The notes: a model not told the origin generated them from the letters alone. A DNA stretch of 63,394 nt, filler included, from Chrysochromulina tobinii (GCA_001275005.1; 9 parts of 9 records of this genome joined end to end with filler, not necessarily neighbours in it); one strand, 5' to 3'; counted from the whole stretch's first letter, positions 5,777 to 33,710 are shown. A program made the numbers and translations.

Positions 5777-8719
5777 CTAGGCCTGCATGCTAGTAGGGTG
5801 TGAGAGGCTCCTTTCCATCGGCGATACCAAACAGGCCGAAATCAAACTGTCGCTTGGGTAGCCAAAGCCTGGCTTGAGCGGCTTCTTGTTTCCCGCCAAA
5901 ATTTGGTCTTGGAGCAGCTGCTCGAGCCGGGGGACCACTTCGTGAAACTCGGGCCGCTCTGAAGTTTCCAGTGCCCAGCAATCCTTGAGAAGGCTCTGCA
6001 AGTCAGCGGGCCATCTGGGGTCGATCTTGGGATGGAACCCTTTTGCGACCGCCTTCTTGAAGAGCTCGGGCGAGGAGAACTCGAGGAAGGGCTTCCTATG
6101 GCTGCATATCTCCCACAGGACGGAGGCGAACGAGTACACCTCGGCCTTGTGATTGTAATTTTGCGAGTTGGCCACCTCGGGCGCCATGTAGCGCATCGAG
6201 CCGCACTCGCCTGTGAGCTTGCGCGGTATGTCGTCAAAGGCCTCGCCATGCCGCCAGAGCGAGGCGAGTCCAAAGTCGAAAAGCACGAGCTCGCCGGTGG
6301 CCAGGAAGCCAATGTTGTTGGGCTTCACGTCACGGTGCAGGATGCGGTAGCCCGGGAACGCGTCGTCGTGGCAATACTGAAGCGCGCGCGAGAGCTGCAG
6401 CCCACAGTTGAGGCACCGCATCAGTGGCCACGCCTTGACCTCGCGCCAGCGCACCCAGAATGGGATCGTGTCTGGGTCACGCGGGAGCTCTTTGTTGAGC
6501 ACCGTGGCGAGCAGCTCGATGATGACGAAGGGCTTCCCCTCGAGCTGGCCGAGCGCATACGCGTTGAGCACGTTCGGGTGGTCCATCAGGGTCATCAGCA
6601 TGATCTCACGCTTGATACCACGGAGTGCGCCAATCGAATTCTGCTTCGCCGGCTTGAGCATCTTGATCGCCACCTTCTCGCCGTCCAACGTGGTCCTGTG
6701 CGCCGTCGCGAACTCACCCTCTCCGAGATATTTCATCTCCCCGAGCGAGGTCCACTCCACAGCGCGCACTTGCTCGGGCAGCTTCCCCTTGACCATAAGC
6801 TGCACGCCACGCAGGTCGGACTCCTCGTCCCTTATGGATTTAAAGCCACCCTCCACGGCATTGCTCACGGGATTGCCATGGCCATCATCCACGTCTAAGA
6901 CTGAGTGCCATCCGCGCGTCGGGTCTGCGTTGCGCATAGGACGCTTTTTCATGCTTTGGCTCACAGCCCACGGCACGACGGCCTCGTCGTCTTCTAGGGT
7001 CTTTGACCCGTCCATCTTCGAGCCGTCCATGTCGCCCGATCCTGTCGGGCGGCCCACGACGAGATGGTCGAAGAGACCCGCGAGCGAGAAACCTCTGGTA
7101 TTAGACATGCTTCCCTTGCTGCGGCGGAGAGGGGTAGGGCTCCCGCCACTGCGAGGAGGTAATGACTCGACCACAATATGAGTAGCAGGCCGGCGTGGCT
7201 CATGTTTCAGCATGCCAGCGTCGTCCCAGGTCACAAACTCCGCTGGGGGGCGAACTCGGCCCGGGCTTGGGCTTCGGATCACTTGCACGGCAGCGTCGTC
7301 GAGCTCGGGACGATCGGGCTCGCCGGCGGACTCATATGTGCGAAATGCGTTCCCGGCTTTGACCGACATCTCGTGCCTCTTGTCGGGCGGCCGCTGCCTT
7401 TCCGGTAGCGGAGTAGATAGGGGGCTGCTATCGGCGGATTCCGGGACCCTGCGTACGCGAAGAGACGGGTCGGCGACAGCAAACACGGCGTCGGCGCTGT
7501 TTGATCGAGCGCGGACGCCCTTGCCCTTGAGCGCACTCCCGAGCACACTGTGCTCCTTGGACGAGTCCGAGTCTTCGTCCTCGTTCTCTTCGACCTCAGA
7601 GGATTTGACACGGCGCAGAAACGACCGCCCCCCCTCAGACTCGAAGCCATCTTTCACGCGTTTAGGGAGGTTGCCCTCTTTGGAGCCGTCGTCCAGAGTT
7701 GGCCCAAAGAGGATGACGCACGCGGTGGTGTCGTCGGTGAGTCCGCGCTTGGAGATGGCCGTCTTGACCACCTTGGCTGCCGCTGACTTGCCGTCCGAGT
7801 AATCACCCGAGATCAAGACGGCCGCCGCCTCCTGCGCACTCAGGTGATCCCACACGCCATCAGAGCACGCCACCAGCGCACCGCCCATCGGGGGAACCTT
7901 CCGGGTAACAAAGGAAGGCTCGGGCAACACGAAGGCCGCACAGTCGGCATCGCCGATGCCTCGGGTGACTGCCAGCCCTCCCGGGAAGGCTCGGATTGGC
8001 CCTCCGGGCTGGCCATTGGGGTCAATCGCCCGGCCGAGCGTCGCACCCTTTGCCACAACACGCAACTGCTCCTGCTGGTTTTCCTCGAGGCGATGGCTGA
8101 CGCCGAGCTCGATGTAGCCGTCATTCTCGACGAGCAGCGCCATCGAGTCGCCCACATTCCAACAAGACACTTCGCCGCGCGTCGCATTCACGCAGATTAC
8201 GGTGAGCGTCGAACCCGCCTTCCTCTCACCGGTGTCAAATTTCGAGCTGCACACCTCCTCGTGAACCTTCTTGAAGACGGCGTTACACGCCACGTTCAGC
8301 GCCGCGGCGGACCCGTCTGCCGCCGAGGCACAGATCTGTTGCAATACCCGCGAGCTGATGTAGGTAGACACATGGCTGCCGCCATGCCCATCGGCCACGA
8401 GGATGCACGTGATCGAGTCTCCACATATGATGTCCTGACGCGTCGCAAAGCAATCCTCGCCCTTGAGGGAGCGTTGAAAGCCGCCCACCATGAATTTCGT
8501 CTCTGATTTAGTGCCGAGTGAGGCCACTGCCACGCTATCGCGGCACTTGGGCTTAGTTGGGGTGCGAAATCCAAGGCTGGACGCAGCATGTAAATCGCTA
8601 CTTGTATCCCACGGCCACCTCCACCCCTTCATCTCAGATGAGGGCGATCCCATGCAGGGGAATCGTCCAGCTTCTCCTTGTGTTTTCTTTGGATAAAGGA
8701 GCGAAACTTTCCAGTCCAA
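5777..8719 (-). CDS. PP2C (PPM) phosphatase fused to a C-terminal TKL-like protein kinase
   Basis: PP2C motifs GED, ADGHGG, NVGDS, LAVTRGIGD, SDGVWD, DDTT; kinase motifs GEGEFA, VAIK, HRDVKPNN, DFG, YMAPE, all in one uninterrupted ORF. Start codon uncertain. Confidence 0.88.
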   Translation of the reverse strand: MDWKVSLLYPKKTQGEAGRFPCMGSPSSEMKGWRWPWDTSSDLHAASSLGFRTPTKPKCRDSVAVASLGTKSETKFMVGGFQRSLKGEDCFATRQDIICGDSITCILVADGHGGSHVSTYISSRVLQQICASAADGSAAALNVACNAVFKKVHEEVCSSKFDTGERKAGSTLTVICVNATRGEVSCWNVGDSMALLVENDGYIELGVSHRLEENQQEQLRVVAKGATLGRAIDPNGQPGGPIRAFPGGLAVTRGIGDADCAAFVLPEPSFVTRKVPPMGGALVACSDGVWDHLSAQEAAAVLISGDYSDGKSAAAKVVKTAISKRGLTDDTTACVILFGPTLDDGSKEGNLPKRVKDGFESEGGRSFLRRVKSSEVEENEDEDSDSSKEHSVLGSALKGKGVRARSNSADAVFAVADPSLRVRRVPESADSSPLSTPLPERQRPPDKRHEMSVKAGNAFRTYESAGEPDRPELDDAAVQVIRSPSPGRVRPPAEFVTWDDAGMLKHEPRRPATHIVVESLPPRSGGSPTPLRRSKGSMSNTRGFSLAGLFDHLVVGRPTGSGDMDGSKMDGSKTLEDDEAVVPWAVSQSMKKRPMRNADPTRGWHSVLDVDDGHGNPVSNAVEGGFKSIRDEESDLRGVQLMVKGKLPEQVRAVEWTSLGEMKYLGEGEFATAHRTTLDGEKVAIKMLKPAKQNSIGALRGIKREIMLMTLMDHPNVLNAYALGQLEGKPFVIIELLATVLNKELPRDPDTIPFWVRWREVKAWPLMRCLNCGLQLSRALQYCHDDAFPGYRILHRDVKPNNIGFLATGELVLFDFGLASLWRHGEAFDDIPRKLTGECGSMRYMAPEVANSQNYNHKAEVYSFASVLWEICSHRKPFLEFSSPELFKKAVAKGFHPKIDPRWPADLQSLLKDCWALETSERPEFHEVVPRLEQLLQDQILAGNKKPLKPGFGYPSDSLISACLVSPMERSLSHPTSMQA

Positions 8720-8884
8720 AAGAGGTTTGTACAGAGGGTTATTTTAGTCCATTGTCGCCATTTTTGGAAAAACTTGAAAGTGGACACACATCGGCCGTGG
8801 ATGGCTGCCCAGCGCTCAGTGAGTGAGAGCCCAGCGACTACATGTGCGGTGCGCCATGTCGGTGGCATGTGCCTTGTGCGGATG

Positions 8885-9012
8885 CGCGTTGCTTGCGCGC
8901 GCTGCGCGCGCTGCGCTGCGCTGCGCGCGCTGCGCGCGCCGTGCGCTGCGCTGCGCGCGCTGCGCTGCGCGCGCGCGCGCGCTTGCGCTGCGCGCGCTGC
9001 GCGCGCTGCGCG
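8885..9012. repeat. GC-rich (GCGCT/GCGCGCT)n simple repeat
   Basis: Read directly from the sequence. Confidence 0.9.
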
Positions 9013-9580
9013 GGGCGCGACACCTCGTTCAGTTGTCGGCATGCTCATACAAAATCCAATACAATGTGTACAACGGCTTCTCCTGTTGTCCTGACTGAGT
9101 CCTGACTCCTGGAAACCGACGTCGACACATCTCACATGCGATGCCATTGATATGCCATTGATGGCGAGCCTTGCTCGCCCGCGTCTCCGGGGTCCGGGCG
9201 GTCCTCCCCTGGCTTCGCTGAGGGTCCGGCGATTCCGGCTGCGAAAGCCGAAACCGTGACCGCACGCGGAGCGAGTCGCCCGGACGGCGCCGGAGCGACG
9301 CCGCGAAGCGCGACCAGGCCGCGTTTCCCGGTTCGGTTTGCGTGCTCGCGGGGCGTGTGCGCGCCCGGCCGTCCTGTTATAAACTTGCTACTTGGGCGTT
9401 GGGGTCAGCCGCGGTATCCGGAGGCGCGTTTTTACTTTGGTCTCTCGTCCCACATTCGACAATTGTCTCGATGTCTCGAGGTGAGCCCCGCGAGGCTATC
9501 GGTCGACCGCTGTGCCATCCACCTTGTGGTCTTTCTATGAGCCACGTACATGTATATATGCAGGGCTGGACGAGGGACAC

Positions 9581-10240
9581 TCACGTCTGCTCGACGAGCA
9601 GGAGCATGCGCAGCGCCGTGACGCCCTCGTTAACCTCGGTGAACTCGGGCTTGCACGTGAGATCGATGGCCTCCTCCTCGATGTTCTTGCGCGCGATCGC
9701 GATCGCCTTGATGGCCTGGTTGGCCGCAGCCGCGCCGATGGCCGTGATCACCATGCGATGGCCCTCACGCGCGAAGCTCGAGATGGCGCCCGCGAGGACC
9801 TTGGCGTCGGTGCCGGAGGCGGCCTTGAGCGCCTGCGCCTCATCCTCGCCGCTGCGCGCGCGGCGCGTCTTCTTGCGGATCAGCAGCAACAGGCCCGTAT
9901 GGCCGTCCTCGAGCTGGAAGAACTCGGGCTGCACGCAGATGTCGATCGACTGCGACTCCTTGAGGAAAGTTCGCGCGATGGCAATGGCCTTTACAGCCTG
10001 GTTGGTCGCCTGCGGACCGATTGCCTGCAGAGTTGGGCAGTCGACGGGCGCACGCGCCTGCGCCGCGATGAGCATCGCAACGTCGCGAGGGTTGGACGAA
10101 TTCCCCATCTTGGTGAGGTTGTTGCCGCGGGCGATGCGGTCGTAAAAGGTGTGGCTCATGTGGTTCGGGGGGCGCTTGGACTGCGTGTCTGGTTGCTCGA
10201 CCGCGTCGTCGCCAGTGGGCCCTCCATCGGAGACGTCCAT
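9581..10240 (-). CDS. Tandem two-domain SpoVS-family protein
   Basis: Two copies of the SpoVS signature: AIGPQATNQAVKAIAIAR...ICVQPEF and AIGAAAANQAIKAIAIAR...LTCKPEF. Confidence 0.85.
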   Translation of the reverse strand: MDVSDGGPTGDDAVEQPDTQSKRPPNHMSHTFYDRIARGNNLTKMGNSSNPRDVAMLIAAQARAPVDCPTLQAIGPQATNQAVKAIAIARTFLKESQSIDICVQPEFFQLEDGHTGLLLLIRKKTRRARSGEDEAQALKAASGTDAKVLAGAISSFAREGHRMVITAIGAAAANQAIKAIAIARKNIEEEAIDLTCKPEFTEVNEGVTALRMLLLVEQT

Positions 10241-10441
10241 GACAATGAGTCGTATGTCGCACTCACTCGCGACTACACGAATCCGAGTTCCAACGCGTTG
10301 GCAATTCGGCTTCGCGCAGTGGGGAAATGGAGTGTAGTGCCGCAGAGGATGTGTAGAGCTCGACAGGACGCGCAGTGTCGCCGCACGTTTGCCCAGAATC
10401 GTTCGCGCCGAGTTTGACCCGCGTAGTTCCTAGTGCCCCTC

Positions 10442-11690: not shown

Positions 11691-13490
11691 TCAAGCCGAC
11701 ATTTGGTTTGGTAGAGGCTCAGGGCGCGAAAGTCGAGTCCTCACACCTGGCGCCGCGGGGTTTTTCTTGGGGAAATCCTGAGCAACTCCAGGGAACTTTG
11801 TCCGCCACGGCGCAGTTCCATTGTCATGATCATGCATCTCGTGGTATTGGGCGGCCTCGACGTCGGGGTCCACCAGCCAATCCTCAAGCGTCTTGAAGAT
11901 GGTGCCCGCGGCCGGTTTCGCCTCCTCTGTAGGGGGCTCACAGTTCGTGGCGACCTGCATTTGCGAGAGGAGCGTCGGCGTCGCCCCACCAAAGGCAAAC
12001 GTCGTGAAGACAACCACCATCATCGTCGCAGCACGGATGATGTGCTTGTTGTTTGCTGTGCCGCCGTCAGTGTCGCCGGCAACTTGGTAGGCGAGGGCGA
12101 CCGCAATAGCGCCCCGTAGCCCCGAGAACCAGCAGACCACTTGCTGGCCAATGGGGACGACGTGTTCGGGAGAGGGTGCGATACAGTTGAAGAAGTTGAG
12201 GATCGGGAAGACGTGCACCGCGCGCACGGCGACGGCGAGCACGATAACGAACAGGAAGGCTTTATTGGCATCGACCCAATGGAGGGTAGTGCCTTCGAGG
12301 TCTTCATTGGTGATGTACTCGAGCTCTATCGTGATCGCGAGACCGACGAGCAGATACACCGTGTTCTCCGAGAGGGACGCGAACACCTTGAGCAGCTGGT
12401 CGATACCCACGCGTGCCGGGGCGGACAGGTTGGGGCGCGCGTATGCGCGCATCGTGAAGCCCGCAAACATCGACGAGACGATGCCCGAGTTCTCAAACAG
12501 CTCTGCCCCCACAAACGATATGTACGCGACGAGGACGAAGATGATGCACTCGACATGCGGCATGAGATGGGGTTGCTTGCCCATGCCCATCACGCGGAAG
12601 GTGAGCGCCGCAAAGGCGCCGATGGTGCAGCCCACGGTGGCCGAGCCCACGCCCGTGACCACGAAGGCCAAGGAGATCGACTCAATCTCGTCGAATGTGT
12701 TGATGCCGTAGTGCGTGACGGCGCGGAATGAGATGAGAGCGACTGCGTCGTTGAGCACCGACTCGCCCACCACGATTGAGTTTAGGTTCGGGTCGACCTT
12801 GAGCGCCGTGAAGATTGCGAGCGTTGCGACGGGATCGACGGCCGAAATGAGTGCGGCAAACTGGCCCGACTCTGAGAAGCTCAGGTCGATGAGCCAATCG
12901 GTCGAGTCGGAGTAGAGAAAGTACCACGTGACTCCCGTCGAGATGAGTGTGCCAAAGATTGCGAGCGACAGGATCGGGCCAATATTCTTCCAGAAGAGTG
13001 GCATGTTGAGGCTATACCCCGCCTCGAAAATGATCGGCGGCAGAAGGAAGAGGGTGAAAAATGTCGGGTCGAAGAACAGGTTCGCGTCCGTTAGCAACAG
13101 TGCAGGCGGGATCGACGACTTGATCGTCATGCCGACGATGAAGCCAATAATAATCGTAATACCGCACTCAGGGAACCATAAGATGTGGTTCTGATGGAGC
13201 CACGAGCCCGCGCAAAGCGAGATCACGTTGAGGATACATATGCCCACTATGCTGATCGCGAGGAGGTGATCCTGGTGCACATGCTCGTGCGTCAAGCCCG
13301 TCATGGCATGTTCTCCAATTTCATGCAAGGGCGGCGGCGGCGGCGACGGCGGCAGGCTCCTAGCGCCCCACATGATCGATCGCCCCTGCGTGCAGGCTCC
13401 GACAGCCAGCGGCCGAACGTATTGTGGTTTTGGCGCACCGGCGGAGTTGGCTCCGCGGACACTTTGGGGTCTGGGATTAACTTTCCCCAT
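11691..13490 (-). CDS. CPA1 Na+/H+ exchanger (NHE8-like)
   Basis: FFTLFLLPPIIFEAGY, ISAVDPVATL, GESVLNDAV, WFSGLRGAIA and many TM segments. The true start may be downstream (e.g. 13373). Confidence 0.92.
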   Translation of the reverse strand: MGKVNPRPQSVRGANSAGAPKPQYVRPLAVGACTQGRSIMWGARSLPPSPPPPPLHEIGEHAMTGLTHEHVHQDHLLAISIVGICILNVISLCAGSWLHQNHILWFPECGITIIIGFIVGMTIKSSIPPALLLTDANLFFDPTFFTLFLLPPIIFEAGYSLNMPLFWKNIGPILSLAIFGTLISTGVTWYFLYSDSTDWLIDLSFSESGQFAALISAVDPVATLAIFTALKVDPNLNSIVVGESVLNDAVALISFRAVTHYGINTFDEIESISLAFVVTGVGSATVGCTIGAFAALTFRVMGMGKQPHLMPHVECIIFVLVAYISFVGAELFENSGIVSSMFAGFTMRAYARPNLSAPARVGIDQLLKVFASLSENTVYLLVGLAITIELEYITNEDLEGTTLHWVDANKAFLFVIVLAVAVRAVHVFPILNFFNCIAPSPEHVVPIGQQVVCWFSGLRGAIAVALAYQVAGDTDGGTANNKHIIRAATMMVVVFTTFAFGGATPTLLSQMQVATNCEPPTEEAKPAAGTIFKTLEDWLVDPDVEAAQYHEMHDHDNGTAPWRTKFPGVAQDFPKKNPAAPGVRTRLSRPEPLPNQMSA

Positions 13491-13495
13491 GTTTC

Positions 13496-13602
13496 CCCCC
13501 CCCCTTCAGTTCAGTTCAGTTCAGTTCCGTTCAGTTCAGTTAGGCTTCCGTTAGGTTGTCTGTTGTTTACGAAGTAACTGAACTGAACTGAACCCCCTTC
13601 AG
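13496..13602. repeat. Inverted microsatellite pair (TTCAG)n / (CTGAA)n
   Basis: (TTCAG)n at ~13506-13541 faces (AACTG)n at ~13576-13593. Confidence 0.8.
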
Positions 13603-13747
13603 ACGCGAAGGTTAACGAAGTGTACGGTATTTTGTGACGCGAAGTAGGTTAGCATACTACATTACAACCTAATTACAACCGTGATAACTTTGCGGACAGA
13701 ATCCGTTCCGAACTTCCGATCCGAATCTCTCGAGGGTGTCTCGGCGT

Positions 13748-15863
13748 CTACCGGAACCGGGGGTCCGCGTTAGTTTGGTTCCCGCCGCTGCGGCTCATTC
13801 CGCCGCCCATCATTCCGCCGCCCGTCATGCCGCCACCGCCCATCATGCCGCCGCCCATCGGCGCACCGCCCATCGGCGCACCGCCCATCGGCGCGCCGCC
13901 CATCGGCGCGCCGCCCATCATTCCGCCGCCCATCATTCCGCCGCCCATCATGCCGCCGCCCATCATGCCGCCGCCCATCACGCCACCGCCCATCGGCGCG
14001 CCACCCATTATGCCGCCGCCCATCATGCCGCCGCCCATGCCGCCGCCCATGCCGCCGCTCATGCCGCCCGGCATGCCACCCATCTGGCCGGGCATGCCGC
14101 CACCCATCTGGCCGGGCATGCCGCCGCCTATTTGGCCGGCCATGCCGCCGCCCATTTGGCCGGCCATGCCGCCGCTGCCACCGCCGCGCGCGCCACCGCC
14201 CGATTGCCCCAACATTTGCATGAGCATGCGTTGCTGCGGCGTCCCCCCCATCGCACTGGCAAAAGCACCCATGCCGCCCATCCCCGTCCCCATGCCACCG
14301 CCCATCCCACTGCCCATGCCACCGCCCATCCCACTGCCCATCCCACCGCCCATGCCACCCATGCCTCCCATCTGCGCAGCGACCAAGCCGGGCCCTCTCA
14401 TCCCCATGCCAGCCATACCGGCGCACATGCTGCCTCCGCTGCCCGTCACCCCCATCGCGCCCATGCAGCTGCCGGCGGCGGCGGCCCCCATCCCATTCCC
14501 GGCTACGGCAGGGCCACCCTCGGCCGCCGGCGCCGCCGAGGCCGCGGGCGTGCTGTCCGCCGCGGCCGGCGGCGGCGCCTGTCGCACGGAGCGCAGCGGG
14601 TGCTCGGCGAGTGTCGGTATGGTCATGCCGTCGGCAAAAGGCACGGTGTCGCCACTCCCATCGCGGACGGACCAAGTGTTGTCATCGCTTGCAAAGACCT
14701 CGAGGCGCCCCTGCTCGTCCCACGGGATGCGCGTGCCGTCCATCAGAGGCAATCAATAGGCAATCACGAGGCAATGAACGACACTCAACTGCTCGTCCCA
14801 CGGGATGCGCGTGCAATCCATCAGAGGCAATCACGAGGCCATGAACGACACCCACCTTGGGGACGAGCTCCGCCAGCGACGTGTTGAGCGCCTCGAGCGT
14901 GCTCACCGTACGCCATCCGCCCGAACCAAGCGTGAGCTCGCCCAACGGGCGCAGGCGCACGATCTCTGTGGCATGCAACTTGACCACCACGTCACCCGTC
15001 CCTCTCTCCTGATCCACTTCGAGGCGAGACGAGGCGAACTGCCCCGGCTCGGGCGCGGCCATGCGCGTGCGCGCCACCTTGAGCGGCGGCTGCTGCTGGT
15101 GCTCCCCGTCGGCCGGCCTTTTCTCCGCCGTTGAGGCGGCCATTGAGGCGGCTGCGGCCGCGGCCCTCTCGGCCGCCGCCGCGCTGTCCGCGGCAGCCCT
15201 CTCGGCAGCGGCGGCGAGCTGGGCGGCCCTCTGCTCGGCTGCCTTCTCGGCGGCGGCCTTTGCCTCGGCCGCACGCATCTCGGCCGCCGCAGCCTCGGCT
15301 GCCACCCTCTCGGCCGCCGCCTTCTCTGTGGCCGCCTTCTCAGCCGCTGCTTTCCGGGCAGCCGCCTCTTCCTCAATGAGCTTGGCGACGGCCGCGTTGC
15401 CCAGCACTGTCGCGAGCTCGACCGCGCTCACGCCCGTCGGTCCGGGCTCGATTCTCGCGCCCGCCTTGAGCAGCGATGCGGCGACCGTCTTCGAGCCAGC
15501 GATCACCGCGTGCATGAGCGGCGACAAGCCATCCAGGTCTAGCGCATTGACGTCGGCGCCCGCGGCGATGAGTCTATCGACGCAACGCGTCGCATTCTCG
15601 ATGACCGCGAGCACAAGCGGCGTCTGGCCGCTCTCGCGCTCACGCACGTCCACGCCCGCACCCGCTTCGAGCAGCGCGATGACTGCGGCGAGGTGGTCGA
15701 AGCATGCGGCCGCACAGAGCGGCGTCCGGCCATCGACCGGATGGCCCCAGTCGACGCACGCTCCCTCGCCCACGAGCCGCGTCACGCCGTCTGCTCTCCC
15801 GTGGCGCGCCTCCCAGAAAAGTCCCTCGCTGACCGACGCCGCCGCGCCCGCCTCGGACGCCAT
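13748..15863 (-). CDS. Ankyrin-repeat protein with coiled coil, small globular domain and Gly/Met-rich tail (intron 14711-14855)
   Basis: Ankyrins GRTPLCAAA, GQTPLVLAV, GLSPLMHAV; a phase-0 GT-AG intron joins ORF 14682..15863 to ORF 13748..14752 (VPK|GRLEV); tail of GGM repeats ending DPRFR. Confidence 0.75.
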
Positions 15864-15902
15864 GCCACGTGCCCGTCACAACGCGGACGTTGTTGTCAAA
15901 GA

Positions 15903-18634
15903 ATGGCGGAGGACTTTGAGGAGTTCGACGACCTGCCCGAGTTCGCCAACGAGCCCAACCGCGCTCTGCACCGCCAGCTCAAGGAGCATGAGAAGGCGGT
16001 GGTCGTCGTCGAGAATGAGCTCGTCGAGACCAAGGAGCGCATCGGCACCATGGAGGAGCACCTCTCGGCCGTCAACACGGAGACGCTGCACACCCAGCGG
16101 CTGATCGACGCGAAGGTCAAGGAGATCGAGACCGAGGACCACCTCAAGCAGCTCGCGGAGCGCGAGCGTGGCCGCTTCCAGGCAGAGTACAAGAAGCTGC
16201 AGGCGGAGCTGGCGGAGCTGCACGACAAGGTGAATGGCGTGCAGGTTGCCGTCTTCAAGGGCAACGAGAAAATGGACCAGTTCAAGCTTCAGATGAACTG
16301 GAATCAGGAGGAGCTCGAGCAGTGGGCGCTCGCGGCCCGGCAAAAGGAGGAGGACAACCTCGCGCTGCTCAAGTACTCGAAGGCGGACGAGGCGAAGATG
16401 AAGGACCTTTCGCTGCAGCTGGAGAAGATGCTTGCCGCCGTGCAGAAGAAGAAGGCGGAGCTCGAGGACGAGGTAACGGACACGCAGGCGGCGCAGATCG
16501 AGCTCGACAAGACCGCTGAGGACTTCCGCAAGCTGCACGAGGAGCGCGGCGAGCTGGTGTCGCAGTGGGAGGAGGCGGTCGTGTCAATGCAGAAGCGTGA
16601 CGAGGCGATCCAGCGCGCGCACGAGCAGTTCTCGGTCGCCAAGCGCCAGCTGCGCGAGAAGCAGGAGGTCCTCGCCGAGCGAGAGGCCTTTTTGCTCAGC
16701 GAGCAGAAGAACAACGTCGAAGTCGAGAACAAGATCACGGCGCTCGAGCGCTCGGTGGCCAAGAGCCGCGAGACGCTCACGAAGGCGAACATGCAGCTGC
16801 GCGAGATGGAGGACCAGGTGGAGACGGTGCGCGGCACGCTGAGCAAGGCCGCCTCCGAGATGGCGAACAAAAAGGTGCGGGTGGCCGAGCTCTCGGCACA
16901 GATTGACGAGCGCAAGAGGCGTCTCGACGAGGCGAAGAAAAAGCTCGCCCAAAACGAGCGCTCGCTCGAGCGTTCGCACGCGCACATGGGCGACCTCGAG
17001 AAGTCGGCGAAGCAGATGGACGAGATAAGCGAGCAGGAGAAGATTCGGCTCAAGCAGACGGACAAGGAGCTCGCGGTGCTTAAGGACAAGATGTTCAACG
17101 AGGGGCAGAAGCTCTTCGCGCTGCGCCAGCAGGAGGCGCATCTGCTCTCGGAGATTTCGGGAGCTCAGCGCGTGTCGCGCAACGCGAGCGCGAAGCTCAA
17201 GCAGCTCGACGAGCGCTCGCAGGGGCAGCGCGAGCTCGTGTACGCCGCCGACTTCCAGCTGCAGCTCATGGAACGCAAGGTGGCGCGCGCCTCGGGCGTT
17301 CGCTCGCCGATGGAGCAAAAGGAGCTGCACGCGAAGATCGCCGAGCTCACGGAGGAGTGCGAGCGGTACACGGCGCAGCACCGGATGCTCAACGACCAGT
17401 ACAAGCGGCTCATCAACGACGTCAAGCAGACGAAGCGCATCGCGCACGAGAAGGAGCAGGAGCTCGAGAAGCTCGAGGGCCAAATCTCCGAGACCGAGAT
17501 GAAGACCGACGCGGCCTCGCGCGCTTTGAAGAAGCTCATCAAGGAGAAGGAGCAGAGCATGGTGGCGTTCGACGTGCTCAAGCTGGAGGGGAAGCGGCTG
17601 CGCGAGCAGCTCAACGCCAAGGCCGACGAGGTCTTCGGGCTCACCAACCGCAAGTTCCAGCTCCAGATGTCGATGGAGGAGCGGCAGGAGGAGATCAAGG
17701 TACACCTCGGATACACCTCGGACGTGCTCGCCCTCCTCCGCCCTGCATGCACGCCCCAGCATGCACGTGCTCACCACGGCGCCATGTCCCTTCCCCACAG
17801 GTGCACTCGGACGTGCTCCGCGCGCAGCTCAAGGCCGCTGAGGAGGAGCGGCACGCGGCGGCGCGCGAGCTCGCGAACAAGCTGATCAAGGTGGAGAGGC
17901 TCACAAGCAAGTACGACATCATCTGCGGCAAGCTCGGCGACGGCGGCGACGGCGAGCACACGCAGGCGTACTATGTGATCAAGGCGGCGCAGGAGCGCGA
18001 GGAGCTGCAGCGGCAGGGCGACGAGCTCGACCAGCAGATCCAAAAAGCGGAGCGCGAGATCAAGGCGCTCGAGAAGACGCTGCAGCACCTTTTTGCCAAG
18101 AACGCGGGCTACAAGCGTTCCTTTGCGCCCGTCGAGCAGAACACACCGCAGTTCGAGCAGAAGGTGCTCCTAGAGGAACAGCACCGCGCCGCCCTCTCGA
18201 AGTACCGCACCCACCGGCTCGAGCAGAGCGAGCTCGAGGAGGAGATGGCGCGTATGGCCGACCAGCTCGCTGAGCTCGATGACCAGAAGGCGCGGCTCTC
18301 GACTCAGCTGATGGACCTGTCCGACCAGTCTGAGCAGCTCGAGGAACGCGCCGCGCAGCAGTTGACGAAGCTCGAAGGCGCCAAGGCGCAGGTGCGGCGC
18401 ATGCTCAACGAGCAAAGGCAGCGCGGTGCTGGCGAGGCGCTCGAGCTTGAGCTGGCCCTCATCGAGCAGCGCAGCACCAATCGAGCGCTCATCGAGGCGC
18501 TCACGGCGATCGCTGCGAACGATCCGAAGCTTGCGATGGCGCTTGAGACTAAGATGGCCCAGGCGGGCGTCCAGCCGCCCGCCTTCGACCCGGAGCTCGA
18601 CGACGACGACGAGGCAGGAGTGGACGTTGCATGA
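15903..18634 (+). CDS. CCDC39: Coiled-coil domain-containing protein 39 (axonemal ruler, FAP59); intron 17700-17800
   Basis: LPEFANEPNRAL, FKLQMNWNQEELEQW, QAAQIELDKTAEDFRKLHEER, QAYYVIKAAQEREELQRQGDELD; a phase-0 GT-AG intron joins the two ORFs in frame. Confidence 0.93.
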
Positions 18635-22721: not shown

Positions 22722-23558
22722 TCAGGCACGGGCCTCAAGCTGCACGATGCGACGGATCACCTCGGCGACGGCCGCGGCGAGCTGACGGTGGTCCTTCTCG
22801 TCGTCGCGTGCGTACGGCAGGTGCACAAAGTAGCTCGCGCCCAAAACGGTGCCATGAGACGAGGGCGAGAGCGAGGTCGCCTCCACCTCGGCCCACTCCC
22901 GTGCCTTGAGAGCTCTCCAATGTGTCTCGTTGCAAATGTACGAGTTGGAGACGCGGGCGGGCGCGAGCGAGAGCACAAAGCCACCCGGCAAGGCGGCCGA
23001 CGCGTTCGCGGCGAGCGCCGCGTAACGCCCCTGCATGGCAGAGCCCTGCACGAGCACTTGCGGCGCGCCCATGTCGATCGTGTGCCCTGGCGGGCTGTGC
23101 GCCAGCGCGTCCTGCCCCTGGCGCAAGTTGTACGCATCGTTCTCGACGAGGATGGTGTCGTGCCGATCGTAGACGCCGAGCCCCATGTGAATGACCAAGT
23201 CATACGAGAGCAAGTCAAGGCCGGCCGAGGCGCCCCACAGCACCGGCAGGGTCACGAACGTGAAATCAGCGTCGACAGTCGCACGCAGTGCCTGAGGCAG
23301 CGGGCCGTTGCGCGAAATCGGGGGCGATGCGCAGCACTCGCCGAGGATGAGTCTGCAGCTCGGGTTGTCTCGGCACCTCCAGATATTGCCGTCAAGCTCT
23401 CGCCAGTCGTGGAAGCCTGTGATAAGCACCCGCGGACGACGGGTCGCTGCCGACTCGCTTTCGGCTGCAGCACCTTTGTTGCAGCTAATAGCGGCCGCCA
23501 CCCCGCCGGCCACGGCGGCCACTAGAGGGCCACTCTGGCGGATGAGGAGGCGATGCAT
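22722..23558 (-). CDS. Pyroglutamyl-peptidase I-like (peptidase C15)
   Basis: VLITGF...NPS, TLPVLW, VIHMGL, VENDAYN (Glu), SYICNE (Cys), FVHLP (His). Confidence 0.8.
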   Translation of the reverse strand: MHRLLIRQSGPLVAAVAGGVAAAISCNKGAAAESESAATRRPRVLITGFHDWRELDGNIWRCRDNPSCRLILGECCASPPISRNGPLPQALRATVDADFTFVTLPVLWGASAGLDLLSYDLVIHMGLGVYDRHDTILVENDAYNLRQGQDALAHSPPGHTIDMGAPQVLVQGSAMQGRYAALAANASAALPGGFVLSLAPARVSNSYICNETHWRALKAREWAEVEATSLSPSSHGTVLGASYFVHLPYARDDEKDHRQLAAAVAEVIRRIVQLEARA

Positions 23559-24178
23559 GTCTTTCGTTGGGCTTTCTTGTTTTAACAGTGAAACCTAAAT
23601 CACGTTCTCGTTCACGTTCACGTTAATTTGCCATCTCGGCAAGACGCACAGCCACAGGTCCCGTGGAGACACAACGTGGGAGGCGCAGAGTGCGGCGCGC
23701 ACACACACAGAAACACAACGCCGCAGACAAGCACAAACACCGGATCGATCGATCAGAAGGGGGCGGGAGTGTCAAGGTGGTGAAAGAGGCCGCCCGGAGG
23801 GGGCGAAACTCACGTTCACGGACCTTGCCCGCGCGAATGTATAGACGTTGGGCCGCTGCGCTTGCGCCCGGGACCCTCACCATAATTTTGTCGCAGAGGC
23901 TCCCCTGGGTGGGGGCCAGTTGCGTCCTGTTCCCTTGGCCGCTTGTCGCCCCGACCACACGCCCTCCCTTGGGCATCCTGCGGCGCATCGTCCCCTGAAG
24001 TCGACCCGTCGTCCGATGCGTCAACAAATAGGTTGCGGCGTTGTCCGCCGGAGCGGGCGCGTCGCGGGGCCTCTTCCCCCCGTGCGGTCGGCCGAGCGTC
24101 GCGTGCCGCTTGTTCCCGGGCGTCCTTAAGCGCTTGTTTGCGGCGTTCAATCGTGGGGTCAAATCCCGCGTTGCGTAG

Positions 24179-25387
24179 CTAGACAAGTTTCCGTCGGTGC
24201 TTGCCCGCAATAGCGAGAAGTTTGTCCGCGATAGTGTGGAGCTTCTCCGCGAGGGCCGTGGTAAGGTGGATGAAGTCTGACCACTGGTCATACGCGAGGC
24301 ATCCCGCCTCATGTCCCCCCTGCCTGTCAGGTTCCGCAGCCGGCACTCCACGTGGGCGCGGCATCTTGTCGAGCACCTCGGGGCCTGCCATGATTGTCCA
24401 CAGCCGGAGAGCACGGAAGGCCCGCCGGACCAAGCATGCCCCACTCCACACCTCGCGCAGCCCCCGAGACGTAGTCCACACCGATCGGGGGGCAGGTCGA
24501 TCGAGGACTACGATGCGATCGCGGTAGCTGATGACCGTTGTGTGAACCGCGTTGGGTTTAACCCTTGGCCCTGATCGAGCCACGCAGGCGGCTTTGCGCC
24601 CTTCATTGAGTATGCCCACGATCCACTTGAGGAATCCTCGCCCGTAGGCGAGCGCGAGTGTCCTTGCTGCCTCTTTGGACTCAACGACAATTTGCGCCCT
24701 AGGAGAGTCAGGAAGCCCGAGCATGAATCGTAGTGCCGCGTGGCGCTCAAGCGGCCCGAGCTGCGCCGCGTTGCCTGATAGGGCTGCGAGAGCATATTGT
24801 GCTTGTCTCGTACCAAAGTCACTCAGACGTTGACTGAGCCATCCTGCAGCACGCGCTCGGTAATCAGCGGCCTCGCCGACGCAGCAAGTAGTTAATGCGT
24901 GCCATCGGGATTGAGGCGCTCGTGCCGGCAGCGGACGCCATATGCCCGCCACAATCACATCACGCGCGAGGAAGCATCCCGTGCACGGACACGGCGCATG
25001 CGTCTGACACCACCATTCCCAGCTGCCTTTCTGAGCGTGATAAGCGCGCTCGCGCTCGCGCTGCGGGGGACCAATCAGAACGCGTTCGCGTACGTCGTCC
25101 CCGAGCCTGTCAGCGAGTAGTCCACAGCGATCTGCTCGGGCATCCAGTATACAGTCGCGCGTAGCTTCGGTGAGGAGTCTCGCCCGCACTGGTGATCGAC
25201 AGAACATTGGCCACGTCTCCGCGGTCTCGAGAAGGGTGAAAGAGGATGCGCCCGCAAGCTTACGAGCCATGATCGCCGCACACAGATCGAAGACAGCCCT
25301 TCCAACCCCCCGTTTGACCCCCGCTATGCGGCAGAGTGCGTGTAAGGAGGGCATGAGGTCGATTGGTCGGATAGATGCACTAAGCAT
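24179..25387 (-). pseudogene. C-terminal retroelement segment with CPCxxC...H...C motif
   Basis: Follows RNase H after a frameshift near 25385; HAPCPCTGC...RWHALTTC. Confidence 0.55.
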
Positions 25388-26291
25388 GGATTGAGCCGTC
25401 GGCCGCCTCGTTGGGGGTGATGCCGTCGTGGCTGTGGACGTGGACGTAGAGCACGGCGCGGTGACGTTGCTCGAGGCGGGATATGTTGCCCAGCTCGTTG
25501 TCTCGGTAGCGTGCCGTTTTGGACGACACCGTGCGCCCGGGGAACGCGTGGCCTGCTTGCATTCCGCTAAGGCAGTCGGTCACAAAAACAGTGACCGTAC
25601 CGACGGTGGTGGCAAGTTGGTCGTGAAAGGCGGCAAGTTCGGCCTCGTACGAGTGGCGCTCAAAGGTGTCGGCGAAGACGTCGAGCTGCCCTCCCACGAC
25701 AGTACGCCCTAGGACCTCGGCAGCTACTGAGACGCAAGCCCGACTAACCACTTTGTTGCCCGAGTCAGGGTCGACTGCTTTGGACCCGTCCGTCGGGACA
25801 AAGTGGGTGACTGGGTACTCGGATTCGAGAACCAGAAGCTTGTCAAAGACGAATCGGCACTCCTTGGCCTTGAGCTCCTTGTGGGCGCGTGCGCAAATCT
25901 CGTGACATTCCCACCAGAAGCGCGCGGCTAAGGGGCAATCAGGGTGAAACGGGTTACCGCGAAGCCGGCCGGAGTCGTCGAAAGTGTAAGCAAGGCGGAC
26001 CCGACATAGCCACGCCTCCCCCCTTCCGATCCACACTTGATGGTAGCCCCCTTGGGTCCGTTGCCTCCACTCCCGTTCGTCCGGCTTCAGCTTGGAGTCG
26101 TACGAGAAAATGACTCGGCGCGTAGACCCGTCGAGGTCGAGTTGAGTTGGTCCCGCAGTGCCGTGAGGAAGGGGAGCAGGTGGTGCTGAGGTGCCGAGAA
26201 GGGCGGAGAAGGCCTCCTGCAGCTCTCCGGCGCGCGCTCCGTCGAGTTCCCGTCCCGACTTCTCTATCGCGGTGTGCCCATCTCTATGACT
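25380..26291 (-). pseudogene. RNase H domain of the retroelement
   Basis: D-E-D-D catalytic set: TDGS (25782-25793), YEAELAA, VTDCLS, NEAAD. Confidence 0.8.
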
Positions 26292-26964
26292 CAGAGCGCA
26301 ATCCTCATTGCTTACCCCAAAGAGGTTCGGTCTGCGGTCGGAAACCATCTCTTCAGGGCGGACGCTCTCAGTCATGATGACATCTACGCTCGAGCCAAGG
26401 TGCTCCTAAGTGCGATTGAGAATGGCGCGTCGTGTGAGTCTTGGCTTCGACAGCAGCCCCCAGGTCAGGTGCGCAACTCATCCTTACTCACGAACATCTG
26501 GATCTCGCCTTCTACTACCTTCAATTTGGCGGCGTTTGCGCGCGAGCAAGTGGCTCGAGCGAGGTGGCTCGCTGGCGCTCAGCCCCACCTCATCTCCTTC
26601 GTCGAGACCTTAAACGGCCTCATGCAGGAAGGGGATCGCGACGCCGAACTCACGGCCAAGTCGTACGTACTGCAAGACTACGAAGGTGCTTCGAGGCGGG
26701 CCAAGGTGGAATGGGCTCGACGCACGCAGGCGCAAGTCATCAACTTGCAGCACGACGGCGTGCGCATGCGCTTCCCCTTCGACTTGCACCTTGAGACGGC
26801 ACTTCTACGGATTTCGGACGCGTGCTCGGCTGCTCTTGGGTACAAGCAGGTAGTCTGCGTTAAACAATCACCTAAGGGCAACTCGCTGCTCGATCGCCTT
26901 CAACCTTCAATCCTACCTCCCGCCACCCCTCAGCGCCCCCCTACAGTGTTCACCCCTTCTGTGA
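26286..26964 (+). pseudogene. Inverted segment encoding the C-terminal half of a family-A/TV-Pol-like polymerase domain
   Basis: RAKVLLSAIENG (motif B-like), SYVLQDYE, INLQHDG (26745-26759, motif C-like). Confidence 0.65.
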
Positions 26965-27340
26965 CTCTTGACTGCCTGCTGAGCTGTCGGAAAACTGATG
27001 GCGTCATCCAAGTCGTGACTGACCTCCTGGAGAGCAGCGTCACGTACTAGGCGAGAACAAGTGAAAGGGTCGGGGCCGAGGGCGTACTCACGGCTGTATC
27101 GAACGAATCCGGCGGCGACGAGCCTCGCGCCGCGCTCAGAATGCACGTAGGATATGGGTAGACTGCGAAGGTGCGAGCTCGACGGGTGTTCCTTGCTAGC
27201 CGCGAGAAGCCCTCGCACTTCGGAAGCTACAGTGGTGCCGGGGTGACGGCCAGGCACTCCGGCATTTGGGGATAGTAGGAGAGCGCGGAGGGCGGTGGCG
27301 TGAATGACGCATTCGATGGTGGTGGTGACGGGCCCACGGC
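26962..27340 (-). pseudogene. N-terminal half of the family-A/TV-Pol-like domain
   Basis: SREY...SRLVRDAAL...HDLDDAISFPT (27003-27014, motif A-like); frameshifted from the RT ORF at about 27260-27360. Confidence 0.6.
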
Positions 27341-29503
27341 GGCGTTCAAGCCACGCGGACCAATCGTGAAGGCGGTTCTGGCGGTCGCGTAAATGGATCC
27401 ACGCTCCATTGCAGCGGACGGGGTGTCTGAGCTATCGCCGACGAGGATGGCTGTAATCGCTTTGGCGTAGAGGCAAGCGGACCAGAAGTTGTCGACCGCC
27501 GTGCAGGTTGATCCGCTGGGAAGGTTCTTGAGCACTGCAGGCGCAAGCTCCCCGTACTTTCGAAGGTGGTACTTCAACAGAGCCCGGTCTATCATCCTGT
27601 GAAAGGAAAGACCATGCTGGTCGTCCGTAAAGTTGATAAAGGCGCTATCGGGCAATAGCTGGATGGCTGCCCGCAGGGTATTGACGTCGACGGTCACCCG
27701 GAGGAGCGCTGCAAGCTTATGACCGCCGTCTCCACTACGCTTTCGCTGGGCAAGATCGGCGAGTGGCAATTGTCGGACGAGCCCATACTCTGCAGGGGCG
27801 TAAGGAGGGATGATCCCATCGGCAGCATCCGCCATTGCCCACCCCCGTCGCCCTGGCACAGGCGCTACATGGCACGCAATGATAGCCCCAAGGAGGACTG
27901 CGAGTTCACGCCGAGCCTCACTCGCCCCGAGCTCGACTGCCCGTGGGTGCGCTGAAAGGATGTCATCGACGCCTAAGAAATCCCCATGAGTCTCGTCGCA
28001 CAGGTTAGCGAGTTCAGCTATGCCGCCAGCGGCGAGTATGGGGCAGAAAGTGACGCCCTTGGCGCGTAGCCGCGAGTAGAGGGGCCCGTGCCAAAGTCCG
28101 ACCCAGTCCTCAGGGTATCCCGGCCAGCGCTCTGCGCGGAGGGGGGACCATTCCGCGAAGTGACAATCAACCAGCGGGAGATAACCAGCACCAAGCTGAC
28201 AAAGGATCCACATAGGGCGCTCGATGACGTTGTCCAGACGGAGGAATTCAGAGACGGGGCCAAGGAGGATGCCTTGAGGCCCGAAGGTAAGCTGGCGAAG
28301 GCCGTAGGTCCACAGAACTCGAGCGACGGCATGGTGGGCACGATCGGCGGCTGGTGTATGGACGGGCGATGCCAGTGCGTTGACAAGAGTCATGGCCGCT
28401 GCCGCCATCAAGGCCGGCCATACGTGGGCAGTGCCGTAGCCGGAGACGAAGGCAGCGGGGCCTGCGACGTTGACAAAGAAATGCGCCAGGTCGTCGTTGG
28501 CCGGCGCAGTAATCCCTCCCGGTTGGGCGTGGAGTTGGATGCGTGGCGATGAGTACGAGCGCCGCGGGCCCTTGACTCCCGCGCCTTGAAAACATTTTCG
28601 GCTCGCAGGTCCCAACCTTCCCTCGATATCTTCAAAAGATCCCCCGAAGCAGGTGCCGTAGAAGAAAGCATTCCCGTACACGCCCAGACCAGCACACCCG
28701 GTGGCTATTCTCCTGCTCGTGTGAGAAGTCGTAGCTTGAGCTCCACATGCCGAGATCTTTGTTTTGAGGGTGGCGAGGCCAATATTGTTGTGGTTTCCAT
28801 CCATGCGCGTCGCCATACCGCAGTACAGATAGTGTTCGCTGATGAGAAGGTTGGGGATGAGGCGAGGGGGGTCATTCGGCCGAAGCCCCGCAATGAAGAA
28901 GTCCTTTTGCGTTTCAGTGGGGACAAGGGTTCCGTTGCGTGCTCGCTTGTACTCGAGCGCCTGCACCACCGTCTTGTCCTTGCCCTTGATGTTGAGCTGA
29001 CAGTCAGTTATGCGGCTCCAGATGGACCAGAAAACCGTAACTCTCTGAAGGAAGTCAGCGTCCCCCGTAGCGTTTGCCGCGTCGTCCACGAAAACCAACA
29101 TGCCTAATTCTAGTCCAGCTCCGTCCGGTGCGAAGGCCGAGTAGCCGGAGACCTTAAGCTCAAGTGCCTGAGCGATAGTGTCCATCATGATTTTACACGC
29201 TTCGGGCGACCCTTGCGCACCCTGGAGGAAGCCGCGCAAGATTGGGAATGGGTCGGTCGCACCAAACGCCGTCTCATACCGCCCTTGCGCCACGCCGTGC
29301 TTCCAGTTATCCACGAGCCCTCGAAGAGCCCGTAGCGCAGCCTCAGGAACACCAATGTGACGCATTGCCATAGCGGCGGCCGTGCGGGAGAATGACATGA
29401 AGCACTTCGTGAGGTCGACATAAAGGACATAAAGAGGTTTGCGCCGTGCGAGGGCGTCGTCGATGCACAGATGTAGGGCGAATGCTTGCTCAGTGCATCC
29501 TCG
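27227..29503 (-). pseudogene. Reverse transcriptase (LINE-type) region
   Basis: Frame open from a stop at 29504-29506 through LYVDLTKCFMS, QGAQGSP, FVDD, LNIKGKDK and YLYCG. Confidence 0.85.
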
Positions 29504-29535
29504 TTAAGGCGTGGATCCGGCTGGCTCCAGCGCCA

Positions 29536-30548
29536 TCCGGGTTAACCGGATAGTGGCTATTTTGCCATCTGGTAGATACAGATAGCTGGTGTGGGTGGTC
29601 CAGGTAGATCCAGATACCGTAAAAAAGTCTTCGGATATTTCGGATAGTCAGATATCCGGATACCGGTACAGTACTGTACCGGTACACGTGCGCACCGCTT
29701 CACCGCGCGATGCTGGCAGGCTTTCGCGCTTCGCTGCCGTCGGCTGTGCTCGCCGCCACGCTTCTTCGCGACGCGGGCGCTGCCAGTGCTCGCCCGCAAC
29801 CAGCTTCCAGCATTGAGCGTCGCGTCTCCACTGGTGGTCAGCACTACTAATCGGGAGCCAGCCAACTATGTGTTGCGCTTGCTCGCTGCTGGCTCGCTGC
29901 TTGCTGCACTTGTCCAGCCGGAGGCGGCGGAGTGTGGGGGCACAAAGCGCAAAAAGGGCACTGTGGTGGAGGAGTTTTACGAAGTCGATTGCATTAAGGC
30001 GCGCCGCATTGTCAAAGGAGGTCGAGCGCATCGACCGCTTCAAGGAGCTCCTCGCCAAGCGCGCCAAGGAGACCCCCGAGGACTCAGAGGCTTTCTGACT
30101 ACACCCGTACAAGGACCAGCTGCTCGAAAGCGCCAGGGCACTAGCGCGCGAGCAAATCCTCGACTGGCAGCTCCACGGGCCGGACGAGCACCTGGAAGTC
30201 TGAGGTCATTTTGGAGCCCAGTGAGATCCTGGATGCCAGAAGTGGACCGATGGAAGTAGCCGACGATGCCCTTGCAGCGCGAGAAGGTGTCCACGATGAC
30301 GGCCGCGCCAGTGTAGTTCTTGACAGAGAGCTCAATTGTGTGGTCGGCGCAGAATCCGCCATCGAAGCCCACCCAGCCCGGTTAGCGCCCGGCCTCGTCG
30401 CTGCGGGCGTTGAGCGTATGTTCTCGAAGGCGGGCAAGCTCCATGGCGCAGACAAGGCTCCCCAAGAGGATGGGACCCTCGAGCACTGCCTCTTTGCCTC
30501 CGCCAACACCGAGTAGGGATGAGAGAGCACGCACGAGCGGAGCAAGAG
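29536..30548 (+). mobile_element. Degenerate hAT-like DNA transposon remnant
   Basis: AGVERMFSKAG...LEHCLF resembles the hAT dimerisation motif; fragmented frames; repetitive CGGATA/TATCCG subterminal region abutting the truncated RT. Confidence 0.55.
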
Positions 30549-32919: not shown

Positions 32920-33710
32920 CGTGGGGTTTCCTATCCTTTTTGGGGGGGGGGTTCCTATCGGATACGTATCCTGATGTATTTCGATGTATCCTGCATGTAT
33001 CTTGCATGTATTTCGATGTGTCCTATCAAGATACATCAAGATACATCAAGATACATCAAGATACATTTGTATAGGATGTATCTCGCATGTATCTCGCATG
33101 TATCCCGCATGTATCCCGCATGTATCCCTCAGATACGTACCTCTCTGCATACATTTGAGATACATGTCTCTCATGATGTATCCCTGATGTATCCCGCATG
33201 TATCCTCTATGTATCCTCTATGTATCCTGGAGTACCACTGCAGATGCATGTATCCCGCATGTATCCCGCATAAATGCTTGCATGTATCCCACATATATTC
33301 GTCATGACCGTCCAAGATACATGTATCGTGATTTTGTATCTCGGTGTATCCTGATGTATCGTGATGAAGAGTCCAAGATACACGTATCCTGATGTATCCT
33401 GACATGTATCCAGTGTGCCACCAAGGAAGCGCCCAAGATACATGTATCTTGATGTATTTGATGTGTATCACCAAAATGTATCTTGGACTCGTTTGGGATA
33501 CGTGTAAAATACATGCATAATGTGAAGGATACATGTATTCTCTTGGAATGTAACAGAGCATGTAAAATACATTTGAGATACATCAGGATACATTCGGGAT
33601 ACATGTATCCTTCAGGATACATGCAGGATACATGCAGGATACATGCAGGATACATAAGGATACGTATTGTATAGGAAACCACCCCCAATTTGTATAGGAA
33701 ACCCCCCCTG
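32920..33710. mobile_element. MITE-like element filled with GATACA/TGTATC motifs
   Basis: Imperfect terminal inverted repeats GGGGTTTCCTAT...GATACGTATCCT and AGGATACGTAT...ATAGGAAACCCC; related copy at ~48180-48400. Confidence 0.65.

Follow-up and report, generated by a model that had tools for sequence, protein, structure and literature searches.

How LINEs (long interspersed nuclear elements) and Penelope-like elements prime and synthesize their second DNA strand is poorly resolved, and the part played by their reverse transcriptase (RT) is hard to separate from that of host enzymes. A locus of Chrysochromulina tobinii (GCA_001275005.1) raises the question of whether some of these elements encode a second polymerase. 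The window, by which we mean the whole analysed stretch of 63,394 nucleotides, consists of contigs joined by N linkers. On the contig at 18849-30548 an initial annotation, made from the sequence alone, had placed a retroelement whose polyprotein appeared to combine an RT, a family-A DNA polymerase (Pol) similar to the transposon/virus polymerases (TV-Pols) and an RNase H. We find that this RT-Pol-RNase H architecture is real and family-wide, that every feature tested marks the element as a LINE, and that the window copy is a dead, decayed full-length member. The architecture is apparently undescribed: a literature search, with Repbase, most subscription journals and supplements outside its scope, returned no paper on a family-A polymerase within a LINE or Penelope-like open reading frame (ORF).

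The polyprotein in the window and in intact relatives

All motifs listed in the initial annotation were found. On the minus strand, the RT frame with FVDD spans 27227-29503 (Pfam RVT_1, E 2e-6), a frame at 26913-27431 contains SREY, LVRDAAL and DLDDAISFPT, and the RNase H lies in a frame at 25380-26405 (Pfam, E 0.019). The remaining motifs, RAKVLLSAIENG, SYVLQDYE and NLQHDG, are in a plus-strand frame at 26190-27050. The inversion that had been proposed was confirmed, with its limits moved from 26291-26964 to 26247-26969, the best-scoring placement against three intact relatives. Re-inversion of this segment gives a stop-free frame of 683 codons that aligns without gaps over 675 columns with the protein P0001 (84% identity). 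Placement by stop-free reading alone was rejected, since 819 pairs of breakpoints tie; the alignment to relatives settled the limits. The same inversion is present in two further assemblies of the locus, L004 (99.6%) and L005 (100%, perhaps the same data as the window).

The joining of the three domains is not a one-off. The relative L002 is a single intact ORF of 4,095 codons that also encodes an AP (apurinic/apyrimidinic) endonuclease (Table 1). Pfam searches of its C-terminal parts gave weak C1_2 and zinc knuckle matches, and no restriction-like endonuclease, SET domain or C48 peptidase. In a set of 293 proteins, all 29 with at least 2,000 residues, many of them near-copies, join Pol to an RT: 22 are LINE proteins with RT, Pol and RNase H in one frame (15 also with the AP endonuclease), six are GIY-YIG-like/Penelope-like, and one has the order RT-RNase H-Pol. 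A metagenome scan retained six loci out of 130 pattern matches. When the plus-strand piece was searched among longer proteins, nine of the 1,279 candidates matched, two of them being Chrysochromulina gene models (EukProt); a Chrysochromulina gene model is also an RT relative at 96% identity.

The L002 type occurs chiefly in lake and freshwater metagenomes (24 runs from 20 studies among the matches listed), and the contigs of four such runs cover 28-30 of 30 bins of L002. Contigs of other sequencing runs span the linker-Pol and Pol-RNase H joints: X2 covers L002 positions 8112-9758, and X5 covers 7552-8308 and 9008-10276. Four metatranscriptomes contain contigs over scattered parts of L002, Pol included (4, 9, 11 and 8 of the 30 bins, with no silent-stretch control). 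In each of the four DNA runs the summed contig depth over L002 12065-12462, in the 3' untranslated region (UTR), exceeds that over the ORF severalfold, and loose ends are numerous. This excess could reflect 5'-truncated copies, related families or non-autonomous elements that share the 3' end.

The RT is of the non-LTR (non-long terminal repeat) type, all seven sequence matches in the PDB being R2 or LINE-1 proteins (best E 1.4e-4), and in L004 an AP endonuclease can be read in the window copy's 5' half. In that assembly the element spans 13.3 kb, nested insertion included, between two copies of a 14-bp word, the 5' one lying beyond the window contig; in L003 the corresponding distance is 11.2 kb, with an 11-bp word at each end. 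Target-site duplications were therefore found in both copies with two ends, and a terminal (AACGTG)n tail in all three distinct copies with a 3' end (window/L004, L001 and L003), whose 3' flanks differ. The duplications, the tail and the differing flanks are marks of target-primed insertion. The initial annotation had the RT, Pol and RNase H right; the AP endonuclease, the target-site duplications and the spread to other retroelement classes had escaped it.

Fold, catalytic residues and selection

An AlphaFold2 model of the middle domain, built from 24 sequences, had a mean pLDDT of 82 and a pTM of 0.74. The PolA-type identity proposed for this domain held in three structural comparisons. In Foldseek searches against the PDB all the matches listed are family-A polymerases (E 2e-4 to 2e-3), and against BFVD the best match is the replication protein of the Zamilon virophage (V6BPG7, E 6.8e-11, TMq 0.55), with a helicase/primase/polymerase of a Qinghai Lake virophage at rank 12. 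The top virophage matches are presumably TV-Pol-helicase fusions. VIA-align, which is independent of Foldseek and was run on 48,161 chains, placed 14 family-A DNA or T7-like RNA polymerases in the lead. Pol theta came first (Z 15.5, rmsd 4.0, 291 residues aligned), Klenow scored Z 13.9 (rmsd 4.4, 279 aligned), and the first unrelated row had Z 7.2. The domain is unnamed by Pfam, PHROGs, NCBIfam and PDB sequences, and tblastn found no match in a phage collection.

Conservation was counted in 182 Pol-bearing proteins, using for each column the rows that cover it; the assignment of motifs A and C rests on the motif pattern. The motif A Asp is present in 123 of 124 rows and the motif C Asp in 134 of 136, and the window copy has both. 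The Arg of RxY (beta-hairpin Arg) is found in 117/117, the motif B Lys in 135/136 and the Glu of QxxE in 140/140. Five residues after the motif A Asp stands an aromatic residue in 111 of 123 rows. In family-B polymerases and RTs an aromatic residue at the steric gate favours deoxynucleoside triphosphates (dNTPs), and by analogy this residue points to dNTP use by Pol.

Synonymous sites are saturated between L002 and two other copies (pS 0.69-0.76), with a pN of 0.15-0.26 in Pol and of 0.07-0.12 in the RT, which is under tighter constraint. These substitution values indicate that the Pol domain is under purifying selection.

A helical hairpin precedes Pol in all contexts (L002 aa 2595-2685; a remnant in the window near 27330-27431). 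It weakly resembles the J domain of DnaJ (DnaJ2, E=2), has no HPD motif and no Pfam match, and is modelled at pLDDT 40-65; the VIA lists for residues 1-86 show no DnaJ domains, which does not exclude a J fold. No helicase was found with Pfam in 38 long carriers of Pol. By its predicted fold and catalytic residues the domain is TV-Pol-like, yet short of two defining features of TV-Pols: the fingers RxxxK Arg, in the window's family, and the link to a helicase, resolvase or integrase without fusion to a nuclease.

Distribution among retroelements

A profile search of 1.84 billion representatives returned 515 proteins (clusters at 50% identity) that match the Pol profile at E up to 0.001, and the best 150 of these were examined. 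A recognisable neighbour domain is present in 47 of the 182 Pol-bearing proteins, with three labels assigned by hand: 14 belong to the window's family, 2 to a distant APE-RT-Pol-RNase H family (APE, AP endonuclease), 19 have RNase H before Pol, and 12 are Penelope-like. The RT of the distant family (P0188, P0189) is 27% identical to that of the window's family. A complete LINE with RNase H before Pol is P0194, which contains an RT (E 1e-23), a chromodomain, RNase H and Pol. At about aa 1700-1960 of P0194 there are PC and ENP motifs, for which Pfam reported no domain; from their appearance we take them to resemble those of a C5 cytosine methyltransferase. In the LINE contexts RNase H is the recognised domain nearest to Pol, on either side.

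Penelope-like carriers have a putative GIY-YIG-like N-terminal region and candidate CxC and DK motifs, recognised on inspection and from phmmer matches between the proteins; neither Pfam nor PDB profile searches named them. For the RT of one of them, P0129 (model pLDDT 64), the top nine Foldseek rows are telomerases; in VIA telomerase scored Z 12.9 (rmsd 4.5, 248 aligned) and R2 Z 10.3. Four more proteins, P0039, P0042, P0061 and P0066, carry Pol behind N-terminal extensions of 200-430 aa that match no tested retroelement domain, and are possibly further contexts or domesticated copies.

A tree was built from 25 labelled Pol domains; rows without a label, near-copies, gene models and two odd rows were omitted. 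In it the window's family joins two Penelope-type Pols with support of 100/99 and groups with four of them at 97/96. The approximately unbiased (AU) test rejected a clade uniting the two Pol-RNase H LINE families (p 0.006) and was borderline, without rejection, for a single clade of Penelope-type Pols (p 0.0503). The grouping recurred in a quick tree of 55 rows. Two scans of viral contigs found no relatives among 28 and 39 pattern matches, so that there is no viral outgroup and the tree is unrooted. The grouping makes transfer between retroelement classes likely: the Pol module has probably moved between LINE lineages and Penelope-like elements. Capture by a LINE from a Penelope-like element is the direction that the tree leads us to favour, though it is not established, and the ultimate source of the module is likely to be a virophage or a Polinton-like virus.

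Structure and decay of the window copy

The features of the window copy and of L002 are listed in Table 1. The copy had been described as decayed, and it indeed bears two internal inversions, frameshifts, a stop and two deletions of about 240 codons each, one ahead of Pol and the other ahead of the C-terminus. The second inversion, of 1.5 kb, is in the 5' half (L004 14828-16334), with about 20 codons deleted inside. Three lesions had been read differently. What was taken for a frameshift near 27300 is the deletion before Pol, with a change of frame; the "stop at 29504" is the boundary of a nested insertion; and the copy is not 5' truncated, its 5' half (N-terminal domain, AP endonuclease and start of the RT) resuming in L004 at 11887-18067 and closing at the matching 14-bp duplication. 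The nested insertion (L004 10623-11886) has inverted repeats that start with TTAA and subterminal palindromes, and three of its short frames gave no Pfam match; it is probably a non-autonomous DNA transposon. An Rfam scan of 23400-30548 gave no match.

Table 1: Features of the window copy (nucleotide positions in the window) and of the intact relative L002 (residues)
Feature	Position	Strand	Basis or remark
Target-site duplication, 3' copy, 14 bp	23588..23601	-	identical 14-mer at both ends in L004
3' UTR with terminal (AACGTG)n tail	23601..23815	-	kept in L001 and L003 despite different flanks; ~82-85% nucleotide identity
C-terminal end of polyprotein and stop codon	23816..24094	-	preceded by deletion of ~238 codons (L002 aa 3765-4002); C-terminal zinc-finger repeats lost
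Conserved post-RNase H region, CPCTGC motif	24095..25396	-	70% identity to L002 aa 3330-3764; in-frame stop near 24180
RNase H domain (TDGS, SYEAEL, VTDCLS, HSHDG)	25398..25825	-	Pfam RNase_H E 2.2e-5 on L002; frameshifted near 25395
Conserved polymerase-RNase H linker	25826..26246	-	
Inverted 723-bp segment: fingers (motif B Lys), QxxE, motif C (QHDG), end of family-A polymerase domain	26247..26969	+	alignment and predicted fold
N-terminal polymerase part: end of J-domain-like helical hairpin, thumb region, RxY, motif A (DLDDAISFP)	26970..27431	-	
Junction: deletion of ~235-245 codons (L002 aa 2400-2645) and frame change	27415..27449	-	
Conserved region downstream of RT, thumb/wrist-like by position	27450..28760	-	Pfam: no match
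C-terminal two thirds of non-LTR RT (YVDL, QGAQGSPE, FVDD, YLYCG)	28760..29503	-	
Nested 1.26-kb insertion splitting RT	29504..30548	.	17-bp terminal inverted repeats; 6-bp target duplication 29498-29503; runs beyond contig end
L002 N-terminal domain	~aa 37-485		no Pfam family
L002 AP endonuclease	aa 990-1237		Exo_endo_phos E 2.7e-8, over curated cut-off
L002 RT	aa 1654-1843		Pfam RVT_1 E 1.2e-7
L002 middle (family-A polymerase) domain	~aa 2600-3010		predicted fold
L002 RNase H	aa 3195-3332		Pfam RNase_H E 2.2e-5
L002 C-terminal cysteine-rich fingers	after RNase H		weak C1_2/zinc knuckle matches

Just downstream of the LINE lies an intact minus-strand frame of 290 codons (22722-23594), which has no Pfam match and whose motifs, we presume, suggest a pyroglutamyl peptidase-like protein. 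Elsewhere in the window (49895-50378, 60076-60392, 32973-33328 and 60865-62192) there are arrays of 10-11-bp repeats that recur in more than one contig, together with a coding repeat of 123 bp reminiscent of armadillo repeats.

Discussion

What would a LINE do with a second polymerase? The initial annotation had suggested that it primes or makes the second strand, which is plausible. The architecture, the target-site duplications, the 3' tail, the predicted fold, the conservation of catalytic residues and purifying selection are directly supported. On balance, and by a small measure, we favour the view that the extra polymerase of this APE-RT-Pol-RNase H LINE is a dNTP-using enzyme that makes the second DNA strand of new insertions. 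As in established LINE biology, the endonuclease would nick the target and the RT would copy the 12-13 kb RNA by target-primed reverse transcription. RNase H would cut the RNA of the hybrid, and the tethered polymerase would extend RNA remnants or the second-strand nick with the cDNA as template. In favour of this view, RNase H is next to Pol among the recognised domains of the LINE contexts, the aromatic residue after the motif A Asp points to dNTPs, and the TV-Pol member CCPol extends DNA and RNA primers with dNTPs (PMC7581432). Pol would then be an accessory gained by very long elements rather than an obligate part of the process, because no RNase H was detected in the Penelope-like carriers and a sister LINE lacks Pol.

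Several observations weigh against this role. Non-LTR RTs can copy DNA templates themselves, and the need for a second polymerase is not obvious. The sister LINE P0135, a single sequence, keeps the RT tail, the linker and the RNase H without Pol between them, the flanking regions being 37-40% identical to those of the Pol-bearing LINE; the module is therefore optional or accessory in this clade. RNase H was not detected in six long Penelope-like ORFs, so that its coupling to Pol is not general, and 135 of the 182 Pol-bearing proteins, mostly short fragments, have no recognised neighbour. Pol is also less conserved (62-65% identity) than the RT (80-82%) or the RNase H (75-78%). Finally, the Arg of the fingers RxxxK (K-4) is found in 91 of 132 rows of the wider group and in none of 12 in the window's family, where Tyr stands in 10, the Lys is kept in 12/12 and an Arg occupies K-2 in 10 of 12; judging from the alignment, this loss may have altered Pol activity in the window's family.

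Other explanations were considered. The heavy rearrangement of the window copy, with its true nested insertion, could suggest that Pol is itself a one-off insertion or an assembly chimera, but intact single ORFs across several assemblies and subfamilies rule this out, the joints are bridged by contigs of other runs, and Pol is under purifying selection; we give this explanation practically no credence. Pol could instead be a de novo DNA primase-polymerase: neither a nick nor an RNA remnant would be needed to start the second strand, or to make free double-stranded copies, and the place of MP, the partner of the polymerase CCPol, would be taken by the J-like hairpin or by another domain. The nearest folds, virophage TV-Pols that we take to be helicase-fused, would agree with this, as would the Penelope-like carriers, where no RNase H was detected to provide RNA primers. 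TV-Pols are predicted primase-polymerases (PMC2579912). CCPol-MP of the staphylococcal SCCmec is, according to PMC7581432, the only TV-Pol that has been studied biochemically, and it can start DNA de novo from dNTPs. CCPol has terminal-transferase activity and extends DNA and RNA primers with dNTPs, but alone it does not prime and requires MP, which binds single-stranded DNA (PMC7581432). Here we identified no MP-like partner, Pfam found no helicase in the long carriers, and both two-ended copies have ordinary target-site duplications, which makes de novo priming by Pol unlikely in our opinion.

The terminal-transferase activity of CCPol, the rank of Pol theta as best VIA match and the two inversions and two deletions inside the window copy would fit a Pol theta-like junction or repair polymerase, which would join the 5' end of the cDNA to the target, or rescue a stalled RT, by microhomology-templated or terminal-transferase synthesis. 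Pol theta is ahead of Klenow by just 1.6 Z units, however, at about 10% identity, the lesions are those of one copy and possibly later than its insertion, and the 5' junctions are clean or have a short T run in both copies seen; this role seems to us quite improbable. We are at least as sceptical of the idea that Pol persists because it serves as a scaffold that binds nucleic acid, or because it has a function apart from transposition, such as interference with giant viruses, virophages or host silencing. Its absence from P0135, the missing RxxxK Arg in the window's family and its varying position between elements would suit such a function, and retrotransposon accessory domains with proposed defence roles are on record (PMC6338049). 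Both metal-binding Asp and three other active-site residues are nevertheless near-invariant at ~25-35% identity, which would be superfluous for a pure scaffold, and a defence role has no direct support here.

Known TV-Pols have been described from bacterial elements, a plastid, phages and virophages (PMC2579912), and in Polinton-like viruses as helicase fusions (PMC12220804; 10.64898/2026.06.19.733378; 10.1101/2022.12.02.518924). The domain described here shares with them a minimal family-A core without proofreading exonuclease, the beta-hairpin Arg, the two palm Asp and the fingers Lys, and its best structural matches are virophage replication proteins. It differs in being part of RT polyproteins rather than fused to a D5/SF3 helicase or next to a resolvase, and in having no sequence-level match in Pfam, PHROGs, NCBIfam or phage tblastn. 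RNase H and endonucleases stand in the same chain and the RxxxK Arg is lost in the window's family, whereas according to PMC2579912 TV-Pols are never in one chain with nucleases and have RxxxK as a hallmark. CCPol is likewise an exonuclease-free PolA core in a mobile element, but that element is a bacterial DNA element, priming depends on a separate subunit, and CCPol works with a helicase; at the sugar gate it has Glu, against Tyr/Phe/His here at what we presume to be the equivalent position (PMC7581432).

Among retrotransposons, Dualen/RandI elements are also found in algae; each has a single ORF of more than 4,000 aa in which AP endonuclease and RT are combined with RNase H, zinc fingers and accessory domains, as in the cryptophyte Dualen-1_GCr with one ORF of 5,287 aa (PMC5029228). 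A second polymerase is not reported for them there, and Pfam detected no restriction-like endonuclease, SET domain or C48 peptidase in L002. Accessory domains on record include methyltransferases, SF1 helicase, chromodomain, PHD, SAP and proteases (PMC5890265, PMC6338049, PMC8557442, PMC6431247, PMC5029228, PMC5963040, PMC8632793). The capture of cytosine methyltransferases (PMC5890265) and of a viral SF1 helicase in insect LINEs (PMC6338049) is similar in that one enzyme domain is found in distinct retrotransposon classes, in frame with the RT and with its catalytic motifs kept; here, by contrast, the captured domain is a DNA polymerase, which could serve a core step of transposition. The Penelope-like P0035, P0036, P0040, P0180 and P0187 resemble Naiad and Chlamys elements (PMC8557442) in the putative GIY-YIG-like N-terminus, the candidate CxC and DK motifs and the telomerase-like predicted RT fold, but bear Pol at either of two sites upstream of the RT core; the words "DNA polymerase" and "haptophyte" occur nowhere in the main text of PMC8557442. 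In prokaryotes an RT is tied to a second polymerising or priming domain in RT-AEP primase fusions and in RT cassettes with Pol I pieces (PMC8632793). Those are CRISPR/defence systems with an AEP primase or only the 5'-3' exonuclease of Pol I, and not mobile eukaryotic retrotransposons.

The finding places one module in two deeply separated retroelement classes and points to gene flow that connects retrotransposons with virophages and Polinton-like viruses. It also provides a supply of hundreds of compact family-A polymerases, which Pfam, PHROGs and NCBIfam leave unnamed in the members tested. With a separate polymerase beside the RT, the second-strand step becomes directly testable, as mutation of an Asp would remove the candidate and leave the RT intact, and the Pol-less sister lineage is a natural control. 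More broadly, algal LINEs and Penelope-like elements may have repeatedly captured and exchanged a virophage-type primase-polymerase, and so become retrotransposons with two polymerases, for which host enzymes are dispensable in making the second strand or free double-stranded DNA copies. We hold this wider scenario to be a serious possibility, although somewhat short of probable. If it is true, these elements would be a hybrid of retro- and DNA replication not yet described in eukaryotes.

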